Sequence record: MG770228.1
Strand: one strand, 5' to 3'
DNA length: 64,000 bases
DNA from: Escherichia phage PMBT57
Within the stretch, counting starts at the first letter, position 1. The number at the start of each line of letters is the position of its first letter. Position numbers and translations under genes: made by a program. The notes beneath the pieces are model-generated. The model did not search any database. It was not told the DNA's origin and saw only the letters and a list, made by a program, of their open reading frames with translations. Below, in pieces: positions 55,212-58,106 of this stretch.

Positions 55212-56270
55212 ATGGCTAGTATTGATTCTATTGCCGTATGTAATCCACGGCAGGTACGTAAATTTGTTGAACACTGTATCCGTTCAGGATTGGTTCCATT
55301 TATCACTTCATCTCCTGGTATGGGTAAATCTGCAATTGTTCATCAGATTGCAGAAGACTTTGGTCTGAAACTGATTGACCATCGTCTGTCTACTTCAGCA
55401 CCAGAAGACCTGTCAGGTCTGCCGCGTTTTAAAGAAAATGGTCGTGCTGAATTTGCTCCATTTGATGAGCTATTCCCACTGGAAGGGGATACTGTACCTG
55501 AAGGATTTAATGGCTGGCTCCTTTTTCTCGATGAGTTTAACTCTGCTCGTAAAGAGATTCAGGCTGCTGCTTATAAACTGGTACTCGACCGTATGACTGG
55601 TCAGAAGAAGCTACATCCTTATGTAGCTATCGTATGTGCTGGTAACAAAGCAACTGACCGTGCCATTACTAATAACCTGTCTACAGCTATGCAATCACGC
55701 CTTATTCATCTGGAAATGGAGACTGATTTTGATGTCTTTATGGAAGATGTAGCTATCCCTAACAAGTGGGATGAACGTGTAATTGCATTCCTGAATGCTA
55801 ACCCAAATAAACTGAATGATTTTGAACCAGACCATCAAGAGAAGACTTTCTGTTGTTCTCGTACATGGGAGTTCGTTAACAAGATTGTTTCCATTCTCCC
55901 ACCGGGACCGATTGATAGTGAAATGACTCTGCTGTTAGCAGGCACTATCACCTCTGGTGTAGCAACATCATTCGTCCAGTTTACTCAGGTCTATAGCAAC
56001 ATGGTGTCTTTGAATGAGATTTTGGATAATCCTAAGAAAGCTCGTATGCCTGAAGACAATAACCTGTTGTGGGCTGTAGTCACTTCACTAATTAACAATA
56101 CTGACGAAGATAATCATTCGAAAATCTTTGATTACGTTGAACGTATGCCGTTTACGTTCAAGGTTTTGTACTACCGTTCTGTAGGTAGTTTGGTTCCAGC
56201 TTTGGTTAAATTACCAAACTGGCGTGTTGCTGCAATCACATTATCTAAATACGTTCATGGTTCCAATTAA
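55212..56270 (+). CDS. MoxR-like AAA+ ATPase
   Basis: Walker A SSPGMGKS, Walker B LLFLDEFN, sensor-1 CAGN, Arg finger-like QSR; paired with a VWA protein as in MoxR/CbbQ/NorQ systems. Confidence 0.75.
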   Translation: MASIDSIAVCNPRQVRKFVEHCIRSGLVPFITSSPGMGKSAIVHQIAEDFGLKLIDHRLSTSAPEDLSGLPRFKENGRAEFAPFDELFPLEGDTVPEGFNGWLLFLDEFNSARKEIQAAAYKLVLDRMTGQKKLHPYVAIVCAGNKATDRAITNNLSTAMQSRLIHLEMETDFDVFMEDVAIPNKWDERVIAFLNANPNKLNDFEPDHQEKTFCCSRTWEFVNKIVSILPPGPIDSEMTLLLAGTITSGVATSFVQFTQVYSNMVSLNEILDNPKKARMPEDNNLLWAVVTSLINNTDEDNHSKIFDYVERMPFTFKVLYYRSVGSLVPALVKLPNWRVAAITLSKYVHGSN

Positions 56271-56436
56271 CAAGAAAGGAGTTACAGACCTCCTGTATGT
56301 TGCTGGCTTTAACGGTGAAGAAATTACCGTATATGCCCCAAGTCTGGCTGCTGCTAAACAAAAGGCAGTTGAATACTTTCGTCCAAAGAAACGTGTAGCC
56401 CATACTATTTGGGTTCATCTCGCAGAGGAAAACTGA
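56257..56436 (+). CDS. possible small ORF between the ATPase and VWA genes (59 aa)
   Basis: Overlaps the ATPase stop by 14 nt in another frame; fills the gap before the VWA gene; no clear RBS. Confidence 0.3.
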   Translation: MVPINKKGVTDLLYVAGFNGEEITVYAPSLAAAKQKAVEYFRPKKRVAHTIWVHLAEEN

Positions 56437-56437
56437 T

Positions 56438-57580
56438 ATGTCCATGACAGATGCTCAATTAACCCGTGAATATGACAGATGTCAGGCTAAAGCCTTTATG
56501 GGCAAAACTGCTGCATTCTTTGGTTCACTGTTATGTTCTCTGAAGTTCCGTTGGGTAAAAGATGGCTGTGATACAGCACAAACCGATGGTGAGCATCTCG
56601 AATGGAATCCTGATTGGTTTGAGAGTCTATTACCTGAATCTCGTGTAACAGTACTCATGCATGAACTATGGCATGTCGGCTTACTGCATTCTGTTCGTAT
56701 GGGTTCTCGTGACCCAGAAGTATGGAATTATGCCTGTGATATTTATATCAACAATCAGCTTATTCAGGATGGCTACAGCTTTATAGGAATCGAAAATTGC
56801 TGGAAAGACCCTAAGTATGCTGGTTGGGCTGAAGAACAAATCTATGATGACCTCATGAGCAAACAGATACGTCCTCCTAAAGCATCAGGTGCTTTTGGGA
56901 CTGGCTCAGGTGGTGACATGAAACCTTCCACTTCGAAGGCTAGTCAGGTGAATATTGTCAATAATGTAGTAAGAGCCATGCACCAACAGAAACTATCTGG
57001 TGGTTCTTTGCCTGGGGTATTACCTGGAAAAATGGAAGAAGTTATTACTCAATTCCTGAAACCAGTAGTACCGTGGCAGGTTTTACTTGAACGCTTCTTC
57101 AATGACCTGCAAGAAACTTACTACTCATGGCAACGGCCTAATCGTAGATACCCTGATATGTACCTACCATCCCCTATGGATGATGACGGTAGACTGGAAC
57201 ATCTGGCTTATTTCCTCGATACATCTGGCTCCATTAAACCTAAAGATGCTTTACGCTTTAGCTCTGAAGTGGCCTATGTAAAAGAGAAATATCAGCCTCA
57301 GAAGATGACTCTAGTTCAGTTCACTACAGAGATTGTAGATGAACAAGTCATTGAAGATGGTGATAAGTTTACTGATGTCACTATCAAAGGACGGGGTGGT
57401 ACTAGTCTGGTTCCTGTACGTGAGTGGATTATTAAGCATAAGCCTACTGCTGCCATTATCTTTACTGACTTAGAAGTCAGACCGATGGAACCATTGCCAT
57501 TTGATATTCCTGTCATATGGGTAGTTATTCGTAACCCTGGTGCACAAGTTCCATTTGGGAAAGTTATTAACATTACATGA
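56438..57580 (+). CDS. VWA-domain protein with N-terminal HExxH metallopeptidase-like domain
   Basis: HELWH zinc-binding-like motif in the N-terminal half; C-terminal MIDAS-like DTSGS and TDLEV; RBS GAGGAAA upstream. Confidence 0.7.
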   Translation: MSMTDAQLTREYDRCQAKAFMGKTAAFFGSLLCSLKFRWVKDGCDTAQTDGEHLEWNPDWFESLLPESRVTVLMHELWHVGLLHSVRMGSRDPEVWNYACDIYINNQLIQDGYSFIGIENCWKDPKYAGWAEEQIYDDLMSKQIRPPKASGAFGTGSGGDMKPSTSKASQVNIVNNVVRAMHQQKLSGGSLPGVLPGKMEEVITQFLKPVVPWQVLLERFFNDLQETYYSWQRPNRRYPDMYLPSPMDDDGRLEHLAYFLDTSGSIKPKDALRFSSEVAYVKEKYQPQKMTLVQFTTEIVDEQVIEDGDKFTDVTIKGRGGTSLVPVREWIIKHKPTAAIIFTDLEVRPMEPLPFDIPVIWVVIRNPGAQVPFGKVINIT

Positions 57581-57586
57581 GGTTTT

Positions 57587-58093
57587 ATGGTTGTTAATGG
57601 AAAACTATTGTTAGGTGCTATGCCCATTAAAGGCATGGTCAACAGTAAACTCAGTTCAGGTGAGACTACGTTTGGACTGGGAGAAGCTGGTTATGACATC
57701 CGTATTAAACAGGATGTTACCTTCTACCGATTTCTTGGTTTGATTCCCTGCATCAAGATTAAGGATGAAGGAAAGACCAAGTGGAAGTTTGGCACTTTCA
57801 CATTAGCTTCTGCAATGGAACGTTTCAATGTACCTGCTGGCCTAGTAGGTATTGTCCATGACAAATCTACATGGGCAAGGCGTACATTATCTGTATTCAA
57901 TACCGTTATTGAACCAGGATGGTCAGGCTACCTGACTTTAGAACTGGTTTATCACGGTCGTAAAAAACTTCATATCCCTGCTGGTTCAGGTATTGCTCAG
58001 GTTATCTTCCATGAGACAGTAGAGAATACTGCTTACAATGGACGATACCAGAACCAGCCTAATCAACCTGTAGCTGCTAAGTCAGCTCGTTAA
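57587..58093 (+). CDS. dCTP deaminase / dUTPase-family protein
   Basis: GIVHDKSTWARRTLSVFNTVIEPGWSGYLTLELVYHG matches the beta-clasp dCTP deaminase/dUTPase core (KSS.AR.GL ... DPG..G.LTLE). Confidence 0.7.
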   Translation: MVVNGKLLLGAMPIKGMVNSKLSSGETTFGLGEAGYDIRIKQDVTFYRFLGLIPCIKIKDEGKTKWKFGTFTLASAMERFNVPAGLVGIVHDKSTWARRTLSVFNTVIEPGWSGYLTLELVYHGRKKLHIPAGSGIAQVIFHETVENTAYNGRYQNQPNQPVAAKSAR

Positions 58094-58106
58094 TTAAGGA
58101 AATATC

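Follow-up and report, generated by a model that had tools for sequence, protein, structure and literature searches.

A predicted MoxR-like AAA+ ATPase and its HExxH/VWA partner, gp24 and gp25, in the early/middle gene block of an N4-type coliphage

Results

The gp24-gp25 locus

The window, that is, the whole 64,000-nucleotide stretch of Escherichia phage PMBT57 (MG770228.1) that was analyzed, belongs to an N4-type coliphage with identities of 99.7% to vB_Eco_Jura and 97.9% to N4. ORF translation recovered three plus-strand ORFs of 352, 59, and 380 amino acids (aa), exactly where a first-pass annotation made from the sequence alone had placed them. The first (positions 55212 to 56270; 39.5 kDa) is the homologue of N4 gp24, a putative MoxR-like AAA+ ATPase that falls in phrog_1297. 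The second (56257 to 56436; 6.6 kDa) encodes a basic protein (pI 9.1) matching phrog_19202, and the third (56438 to 57580; 43 kDa) is the homologue of N4 gp25, which consists of a zincin-like N-terminal part (Pfam DUF2201_N), a linker, and a VWA-like C-terminal part (DUF2201). The ATG of gp24 is preceded by a Shine-Dalgarno-like GGAGAG 5 nucleotides (nt) upstream, and the corresponding GAGGA of gp25 lies within the 3' end of the 59-aa ORF. This small ORF begins with an ATG and shares its first 14 nt with the end of gp24, and a single nucleotide separates its stop codon from the ATG of gp25. An Rfam search of 52 to 61 kb (E value up to 0.1) found no RNA element in the gp24-gp25 spacer.

Both large proteins share 99% amino acid identity with gp24 and gp25 of N4 (EF056009; NC_008720), and the gene order is common to the two phages (HNH gp22, gp23, gp24, gp25, and dCTP deaminase gp26), with no substantive difference except in the annotation of the 59-aa ORF and the RefSeq label of gp25. 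The pair is therefore not new: these are the long-annotated gp24/gp25 core genes of N4, a known and ordinary feature of N4-like phages. Its architecture has already been published, both in N4-like genome papers, which describe one product as a putative AAA ATPase and the other as a member of the vWFA superfamily with no known function (PMC2784036; PMC6992544), and by Iyer et al. in 2021 for jumbo phages (PMC7824862). In the literature searched, we found no experimental data on N4 gp24 or gp25, nor any that address ATP hydrolysis, metal binding, proteolysis, or the formation of a complex in a member of either family; the CRISPRi-ART paper mentions N4 for rIIA/B only. This agrees with the earlier remark that the role of such a pair in a lytic phage is not understood.

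The ATPase gp24

The translation of gp24 contains a Walker A motif or P-loop, SSPGMGKS (residues 33 to 40; positions 55308 to 55331), a Walker B motif, LLFLDE (residues 103 to 108; 55518 to 55535), and a segment extending from the sensor-1 residue N145 to the Arg finger R163 (55644 to 55700), all on the plus strand. The complete motif set announced in the first-pass annotation was thus verified, and it is kept in about 100 relatives. G38 and K39 were found in 100 of 100 aligned relatives, of which 97 retained S40 and the other 3 had T; D107 was present in 102 of 102, of which 100 retained E108 and the other 2 had D; and N145 and R163 were each conserved in 102 of 102. All phage relatives examined have retained the catalytic residues, so the loss that the first pass had named as a refutation did not occur. 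In the AlphaFold model (AF2; pLDDT of 86), strands 132 to 134 and 138 to 145 precede sensor-1, N145 lies at the end of beta4 (138 to 145), and R163 stands just before beta5 (165 to 169).

Between beta2 and beta3, there is an insertion of ca. 42 residues (residues 59 to 100; positions 55386 to 55511, plus strand) with the near-invariant motif RLSTSAPEDLSGLP in the alignment of gp24 relatives; D66, G69, and P71 were each retained by 98 or more of 101 relatives. It was modeled as a beta-hairpin (70 to 73/79 to 82), at a pLDDT of only 61 to 64. By analogy, this segment is a candidate helix-2 insert, the element that in NorQ contacts the VWA partner of the NorQD complex (PMC13036017).

The assignment of gp24 to phrog_1297 ("ATPase") had an E value of 1e-136. 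When its model was compared with the PDB by Foldseek, the best match was CbbQ2 (6l1q; E value of 1.5e-8, TM score to target of 0.64), followed by other MoxR-family structures, namely, NorQ (9qh4, 9qh8, and 9qhd), CHU_0153 (2r44), and cso-CbbQ (5c3c). The CbbQ/NorQ matches (E values of 1.5e-8 to 1e-7) were followed by MCM and dynein, which belong to the same helix-2-insert branch of the AAA+ proteins. Sequence and profile searches of the PDB returned only noise, except for the best match of the family profile, which was an AAA module of Midasin. In Pfam, gp24 stayed below the gathering cutoffs of AAA_5 (19.3 bits versus 22) and AAA (19.6 versus 21.2) and matched neither AAA_3 nor any NCBIfam family; a bacterial homologue passed AAA_5 at 29.5 bits and nearly passed AAA_3 (26.6 versus 27). 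Since the Pfam scores were subthreshold, the "MoxR-type" label given in the first pass rests on fold and context, where it held, and not on a Pfam assignment, where it did not. In PADLOC, which holds profiles of known anti-phage defence systems, there was no significant match: the only hit of gp24 was to IetA (E value of 0.026, over 27 P-loop residues), and neither gp25 nor the 59-aa ORF had any.

The HExxH/VWA protein gp25

The double nature of the partner, with an HExxH N-terminal half and a MIDAS-bearing VWA domain, was also borne out. DUF2201_N matched residues 10 to 245 with 291 bits (cutoff of 23.2; E value of 1e-86) and DUF2201 matched with 158 bits (E value of 1e-46), both far above chance, and the motifs are kept in about 110 relatives. 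The predicted metal-binding and catalytic site (positions 56660 to 56752, plus strand) comprises HELWH (H75, E76, and H79), within HELWHVGLLH (residues 75 to 84), together with H84 and N97-x3-D101-x3-N105. H75, H79, H84, N97, D101, and N105 were kept in at least 112 of 114 relatives; H84 and D101, both candidate third metal ligands, were invariant. The predicted catalytic Glu, E76, was kept in 108 of 113 relatives and in every phage copy examined, the five losses all being chromosomal copies of Campylobacterota. Since these homologues keep the metal ligands but not the catalytic Glu, the family can work without proteolysis. In the AF2 model (pLDDT of 78), HELWH sits on a helix (66 to 81) that comes after a sheet of three strands (36 to 39, 47 to 49, and 53 to 56), and N97-x3-D101-x3-N105 lies on the following helix. 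Two fold searches of the PDB matched no solved zincin to the N-terminal domain, because VWA matches dominated both. Sequence and profile searches of the PDB with gp25 gave nothing beyond noise, and the isolated N-terminal 143 residues, searched against Pfam at E values up to 10, matched DUF2201_N alone.

Just before the VWA domain, the linker carries a WxRPNRR motif (positions 57128 to 57148, plus strand), in which W231, P234, R236, and R237 were invariant and R233 and N235 were conserved at 90% or more in the alignment of gp25 relatives. The model has a pLDDT below 50 at residues 229 to 235, and we consider the motif a candidate ATPase-engaging or regulatory segment. The C-terminal part (residues 251 to 380; positions 57188 to 57580, plus strand) was identified by fold search as a VWA domain, of Rossmann-like alpha/beta type, with the MIDAS D261-x-S263-x-S265 (DTSGS, residues 261 to 265), T322, and D344. 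The first four of these residues were kept in all 111 to 112 aligned relatives and D344 in 100 of 107. The domain is minimal (about 125 aa).

The 59-aa ORF

The product of the 59-aa ORF matched phrog_19202 almost end to end (E value of 2e-33; residues 1 to 58 against profile positions 4 to 61 of 61), as did all 58 of its distant relatives that were tested against this profile. Profile and PDB searches found no known function, structure, or Pfam family for phrog_19202, and PDB searches with the 59-aa protein itself gave noise only. Homologues with 42 to 71% identity occupy the same position in schitoviruses of Achromobacter, Pseudomonas putida, and Erwinia and in metagenomic contigs, and the family has 160 cluster representatives among 1.8 billion proteins. 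Its pN values (0.27 to 0.44, against a saturated pS of 0.7 to 1.0) were the same as those of its neighbors. The ORF is a real gene under purifying selection.

It is not a fixed part of the locus, however. Using the 59-aa protein as the query in a less sensitive search, we found the gene in 32 of the 681 gp25-bearing phage records. About half of the related loci have gp24 and gp25 genes that abut within 30 nt or less, and others have unrelated ORFs in the gap. Because the large genes adjoin in so many loci without it, the small gene is an optional accessory insert at a variable operon junction and not a required subunit. The ORF that the first pass described as bridging the two genes is thus genuine, but only a minority of relatives carry it.

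Two other identities were rejected. The profile of the first set of relatives had a weak match to the LAGLIDADG protein I-MsoI through "YIAGF..G...YA" (E value of 0.065; per-domain E value of 70). We discarded it: a protein of 59 aa is too short, the acidic position that would be catalytic is variable, and the match disappeared with a broader alignment. A frameshift fusion of gp24 with the small ORF was dismissed because in other genera the latter starts 3 nt past the ATPase stop, with no overlap. A tblastn search with a distant member of the small-domain family hit only schitoviruses and one Rhizobium plasmid. The same small domain follows an HExxH segment in two polyvalent proteins; polyvalent proteins are regarded as injected counter-defence proteins. 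These two are mutually related and count as one observation, so we take the link to HExxH as a lead and not as evidence.

Linkage and genomic context

In 105 of 117 related loci, the ATPase gene directly precedes the gp25 homologue in the same orientation; nine of the others are cut by a contig end. This co-occurrence bears out the pairing noted in the first pass. Phage records with homologues numbered 681 for gp25 and 832 for gp24, including Schitoviridae, rV5-like, and jumbo phages, and the two genes are among the few common to essentially all N4-like phages, with homologues in hundreds of further large virulent phages.

In the window, the pair lies on the plus strand with RNAPII, dCTP deaminase, ThyX, and rIIA, opposite the vRNAP and the structural block, which are on the minus strand; it belongs to the early/middle transcription block and not to the late structural genes. 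Synteny with dCTP deaminase is constant, and ThyX is nearby. The Crick-strand genes of LUZ7 are expressed strictly late, and its middle genes serve mainly replication (PMC9163698). The rV5 homologues of both genes adjoin rIIA, in divergent clusters with sigma70-type promoters annotated in the record. The capsid decoration protein of N4, gp17, is encoded in the same block as the pair, and middle-phase expression is compatible with a morphogenetic role.

Discussion

We propose that gp24 and gp25 form a two-part, middle-expressed, ATP-driven MoxR-AAA+/VWA machine for remodeling and processing, a reading to which we give a probability of roughly 55%. In it, gp24 would assemble as a hexameric ring, to which gp25 would bind by means of its C-terminal VWA domain, in the way that NorD docks on NorQ and CbbO on CbbQ. 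The MIDAS metal would then seize a specific target protein by one of its acidic side chains, ATP hydrolysis by gp24 would strain or unfold the target, and the zincin-like HExxH domain of gp25 would cleave it. The pair would probably be expressed with the middle, replication-phase genes, which is why we favor a cytoplasmic phage or host target over a late component of the virion. What the sequence work establishes is the identity of the domains, the conservation of their motifs, the linkage of the two genes, and the transcription block in which they lie; the complex, the MIDAS-mediated targeting, the proteolysis, and the timing are inferred from these.

The best structural matches of gp24 are the ATPases of NorQ/NorD and CbbQ/CbbO, bacterial MoxR-VWA systems acting as insertase and activase, but the identity is only 16 to 18%. 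Like NorD and CbbO, gp25 has a C-terminal MIDAS VWA domain after a flexible linker and an N-terminal domain. NorQD docks in a "finger-in-pore" arrangement with the MIDAS as the target site (PMC13036017). However, the VWA domain of gp25 is much smaller than those of NorD and CbbO and has no obvious inserted finger, so its docking may differ from that of NorD. In addition, gp24 carries a helical C-terminal extension of about 85 residues relative to NorQ and CbbQ, the zincin-like HExxH module of gp25 is absent from NorD and CbbO, and gp24/gp25 have no known metalloenzyme client. Midasin/Rea1 also joins an AAA ring to a MIDAS domain, but it does so within one giant eukaryotic polypeptide that contains six AAA modules and lacks a peptidase.

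A counterpart is found in group 2.2 jumbo phages, where the same two genes, for a MoxR-like ATPase and a vWA protein with an N-terminal metallopeptidase, were noted as pairs (Iyer et al. 2021; PMC7824862). Jumbo phages, PBECO4 and Atu_ph07 for example, were among our tblastn matches to gp25 (22 to 26% identity). The jumbo-phage pairs lie in myovirus genomes and the one in the window in a 70-kb podovirus. The virion-assembly role put forward for the jumbo-phage pair is itself a proposal and fits the gene context of N4 less well. Extended to N4, it would have the pair fold, assemble, and proteolytically mature structural proteins of the tail, appendages, or interior, which we regard as unlikely, though it is the strongest of the alternatives. 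In the archaeal virus ATV, development of the tail has been linked to a peptidase-free MoxR/VWA pair (PMC7824862; PMC7159879), roseophages have a "second structural module" near their gp24/gp25 homologues (PMC4193335), gp17 shares the gene block, and near-universality in Schitoviridae is what would be expected of a core assembly function. On the other hand, the pair shares its strand with the early/middle genes and faces the late structural genes on the other strand, and its rV5 homologues adjoin rIIA in clusters with sigma70-type promoters. Furthermore, gp24/gp25 homologues are not listed among the virion proteins of the N4-like roseophages RPP1 and RLP1 (PMC4193335), although a chaperone need not be packaged, and no processed virion protein was tied to the pair in the literature searched.

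It is harder to sustain that the pair opens a client metalloenzyme in the manner of NorQD, CbbQO, or CobST, without proteolysis, the HExxH segment serving as a metal-holding or client-binding module; the clients would possibly be neighboring nucleotide-metabolism enzymes. That the closest solved folds of gp24 are of the activase/insertase type (CbbQ and NorQ) is consistent with this, as are a weak partial match to the CobS-like "porphyrin biosynthesis" phrog_249 (E value of 1e-6, residues 13 to 145), the Campylobacterota homologues of gp25 with His/Asp ligands and no catalytic Glu, and the constant synteny with dCTP deaminase, with ThyX nearby. However, the catalytic Glu is kept in all the phage copies examined (108 of 113 relatives overall), which argues for catalysis in phages, and no client metalloenzyme candidate co-varied with the pair across Schitoviridae, rV5-like, and jumbo phages. 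A CobS/CobT-type chelatase proper was rejected, the N terminus of gp25 being zincin-like and not CobT-like and the 23 N4 features around the pair including no CobN-like subunit.

Equally doubtful is a three-component system in which the 59-aa protein acts as adaptor, regulator, or substrate, its conserved acidic C terminus (...LAEE) being the MIDAS ligand. Its gene, seen in four or more schitovirus lineages, is always directly 3' of the gene for the ATPase and evolves as slowly as gp24 and gp25. The overlapping or abutting start and stop codons suggest translational coupling with the neighbors, and the small domain comes after the HExxH segment in the two polyvalent proteins. Against this, the less sensitive search placed the gene in 32 of 681 gp25-bearing records, the large genes abut in about half of the loci and enclose unrelated ORFs in others, the small domain also occurs in unrelated proteins outside any ATPase or VWA context, and the polyvalent proteins are a single observation. 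We likewise give little credence to the bolder version in which the pair is no morphogenetic chaperone but an ATP-powered, MIDAS-targeted protease, used by N4-like and many other large virulent phages against a specific host or phage protein in mid-infection, for example for take-over or counter-defence, and in which the 59-aa protein, where a lineage has it, is a detachable adaptor or regulator that places its acidic C terminus at the MIDAS.

Finally, the label "HNH endonuclease" that gp25 bears in RefSeq (NC_008720) and in annotations derived from PHROG (phrog_1314) has only the database entry in its favor and is refuted at the sequence and fold level: DUF2201_N and DUF2201 cover residues 10 to 380 with no HNH match in Pfam, the C-terminal fold is VWA, and the genuine HNH_3 protein gp22 (positions 54655 to 55011) was detected easily in the same Pfam scan (E value of 9e-20).

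As a finding, the pair adds little, because its genes and domain makeup are already in databases and the literature. Solving its role would fill a gap in N4 biology and could reveal targeted proteolysis as a new use of MoxR/VWA systems. The practical by-products are corrections of annotation: the 59-aa gene is missing from the GenBank and RefSeq records of N4, and the HNH label of gp25 is wrong.

Genomic context and annotation history

The window belongs to an N4-type coliphage, and the segment from 55000 to 58100 was 99.7% identical to vB_Eco_Jura and 97.9% identical to N4. Here lies the known N4 gp24/gp25 core pair, whose domain architecture is already known: gp24 (55212-56270), a 59-aa ORF (56257-56436), and gp25 (56438-57580), all on the + strand. 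The first-pass annotation was confirmed in its observations (ORFs, motifs, domains, and linkage are as claimed) and supported in its interpretation. What we add is evidence that the 59-aa ORF, unannotated in N4, is a conserved but optional gene, a correction of the “HNH endonuclease” label of gp25, and a conservation census of gp24 and gp25 at the residue level. The pair is preceded by homologues of gp22 (54655-55011, +) and gp23 (+) and followed by a dCTP deaminase gene (57587-58093, +), with ThyX and rIIA further 3′ (+); two RNAPII subunits are encoded on this same strand. The − strand carries the structural genes and the 3,506-aa virion RNA polymerase between 9.6 and 43.4 kb, and the strand layout agrees with the GC-skew switch. 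The gp22 homologue, two genes 5′ of gp24, is a true, free-standing HNH_3 homing endonuclease (Pfam E value, 9e-20). The N4 gp20 homologue (53530-54366), named “lipoprotein” in RefSeq, has an SPFH/Band-7 domain (Pfam E value, 2e-23); 5′ of it lie genes for a small membrane protein and for a homologue of gp18, a P22 gp17-like “superinfection exclusion” protein.

In the 2007 GenBank record of N4, gp24 and gp25 are “similar to S. coelicolor protein 1” and “protein 2”; in RefSeq NC_008720, they are “ATPase” and “HNH endonuclease.” The latter label comes from phrog_1314 and was copied to many RefSeq phage records. A Pfam scan detected no HNH domain in gp25, which consists instead of DUF2201_N and a VWA domain; the label is unsupported and looks like a propagated annotation error among gp25 homologues. 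Papers on N4-like genomes describe a putative AAA ATPase and a vWFA/pfam13203 protein of unassigned function (PMC4193335, PMC2784036, PMC6992544), and a pair of MoxR ATPase and metallopeptidase-vWA protein was explicitly reported in jumbo phages by Iyer et al. 2021 (PMC7824862).

Domains and conserved residues of gp24 and gp25

ORF calling and translation recovered every motif named in the first pass. In the 352-aa gp24, these are Walker A (SSPGMGKS), Walker B (LLFLDE), sensor-1 N145, and Arg finger R163. The protein matched phrog_1297, “ATPase” (E value, 1e-136), while its Pfam scores (AAA_5, 19.3 bits; AAA, 19.6 bits) were both below threshold. A confident AlphaFold2 model from 35 homologues (pLDDT, 86) had as best PDB fold matches CbbQ2, NorQ (including NorQ-NorD complexes), CHU_0153, and cso-CbbQ, followed by MCM and dynein, which belong to the same AAA+ branch as the MoxR-family ATPases. 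With the family profile, the only significant match among PDB sequences was a Midasin AAA module; a chromosomal bacterial homologue scored above the AAA_5 threshold and just short of that for AAA_3. Thus, the “MoxR-type” designation holds by closest folds and genomic context but not by Pfam, and we accept it in that sense for a protein too divergent for curated Pfam membership. Residues K39, D107, N145, R163, and R217 were unchanged across 106 relatives. In the alignment, a 42-residue β2-β3 insertion bears a near-invariant RLSTSAPEDLSGLP motif; it was modeled, with low confidence, as a hairpin. The insertion is a candidate for the helix-2 insert, through which NorQ takes hold of its VWA partner (PMC13036017).

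The HExxH half and MIDAS-bearing VWA domain ascribed to gp25 (380 aa) were borne out by HMM searches, with DUF2201_N (“putative metallopeptidase”) at 291 bits and DUF2201 (“VWA-like”) at 158 bits over residues 10 to 380. The motifs are HELWHVGLLH and a MIDAS of DTSGS, T322, and D344. The model (pLDDT, 78) comprised two α/β domains, one N-terminal and well predicted, the other C-terminal and compact, on either side of a linker that is in part disordered; in the N-terminal domain, a three-strand sheet precedes the long helix that bears HELWH. This N-terminal domain matched no solved zincin in PDB sequence, profile, or fold searches, the last being swamped by VWA matches. An invariant WxRPNRR motif sits in the disordered stretch immediately before the VWA domain. 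Residues H75, H79, H84, N97, D101, and N105 and those of the MIDAS were essentially invariant in 115 relatives. We looked in close relatives for loss of catalytic residues, as evidence against the first-pass interpretation; the phage copies of both proteins keep them. Domain identity and the strict conservation of catalytic and metal-binding residues in phages are established. The catalytic E76 was retained in all phage copies aligned and was substituted solely in five chromosomal Campylobacterota homologues (contigs L022, L025, L027, L031, and L032), by I, T, or V; these homologues keep their His/Asp metal ligands and the greater part of the MIDAS. After the pair, L022 and L031 have an ORF of 232 to 236 aa, that of L031 without a Pfam match.

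Linkage and distribution of the pair

Among 117 loci retrieved via gp25 relatives, the ATPase gene was on the same strand in 105, nearly always upstream of gp25, and nine of the remaining loci were cut by a contig end; gene linkage is likewise established. By tblastn, homologues of gp25 were found in 681 phage records and those of gp24 in 832, including Schitoviridae of many hosts, rV5-like phages (whose records already carry the “MoxR ATPase” label), Rak2-like and other jumbo phages, Campylobacter phages, and Bacillus phage G. Such pairs also occur in free-living bacteria, in ordinary chromosomal contexts. Given this wide distribution, the linkage, and the published descriptions, the pairing is real and ancient, and not new.

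In some relatives, mobile elements break up the gp24-like gene. The ORF is interrupted precisely at its P-loop codons (profile position 36/37) in L076 (2157-2387) and L077 (1801-2153), in both by a group I intron (Rfam RF00028; 55.9 and 101 bits), and L077 has a second insertion of ~820 nt (about 2445-3267) at profile position 119/120. In L003 and L004 (3066-4998), the gene lies in pieces on either side of a NUMOD4/HNH_3 endonuclease ORF. The sibling contig L078 has an uninterrupted gene.

Proposed mechanism and client

On the basis of homology of the parts with NorQD, CbbQO, and Midasin, we infer that a gp24 hexamer would dock the VWA domain of gp25, whose MIDAS ion would capture a client by an acidic residue; the client would then come under strain as gp24 hydrolyzes ATP, and the zincin-like domain would cut it. 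The bacterial copies that lack this Glu show the family to be capable of working without proteolysis as well, and they keep alive a less probable reading, a pure chaperone or metal-insertion machine.

As client, we favor, on circumstantial grounds, a mid-infection cytoplasmic protein rather than a virion protein. A serious rival is a virion-morphogenesis machine, as Iyer et al. 2021 suggested for jumbo phages by analogy with the MoxR/vWA pair of ATV (PMC7824862). Against it, and in favor of a mid-infection client, gp24 and gp25 lie in the middle block of N4-like phages; in LUZ7, Crick-strand genes are strictly late and middle genes serve chiefly replication (PMC9163698). Likewise, both genes adjoin rIIA in rV5, in divergent clusters with record-annotated sigma70-type promoters, and the virion proteome as listed for N4-like roseophages includes no homologue of either (PMC4193335).

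The 59-aa ORF at the gp24-gp25 junction

The small ORF starts inside gp24, sharing 14 nt with it, and its stop lies one base ahead of the gp25 ATG. It matched phrog_19202 (E value, 2e-33), and homologues with 42 to 71% identity were found directly 3′ of the ATPase gene in Enquatrovirus, Achromobacter (Dongdastvirus), Pseudomonas putida (Zurivirus), and Erwinia (Yonginvirus) phages as well as in metagenomic N4-like contigs. Compared with these homologues, pS was 0.7 to 1.0 (saturated) and pN 0.27 to 0.44, which matched gp24 and gp25 in identical genome pairs. Records of several close relatives annotate it, but neither N4 record does. By these sequence criteria, it is a genuine gene. The first pass had it bridging the two genes; it is conserved, but it is not an integral bridge, being found in 32 phage records (the 59-aa query makes for a less sensitive search) and missing from many loci. 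In about half of the related loci, gp24 and gp25 homologues abut within 30 nt, and in others unrelated ORFs fill the junction, which is a variable spot. Some schitoviruses have a further ORF, 120 to 135 aa long, between the small gene and gp25 (L005, 5193-5600; L035, 3672-4034; L045, 3630-4004), which supports the junction as an insertion hot spot; the L035 and L045 copies resemble each other by eye.

Database searches found no structure, Pfam family, or function for this family. A domain profile run against 1.84 billion representatives gave 160 members, most of them stand-alone proteins of 55 to 85 aa and a few of them modules within large proteins. Two related giant polyvalent proteins with the domain, P0345 (residues 613 to 660) and P0359 (residues 994 to 1041), also carry ART-PolyVal, ddrB-ParB, and N6-methylase domains; in both, it directly follows an HExxH segment. 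In P0343, P0388, and P0396, it is near the N terminus of long Lys/Glu-rich proteins.
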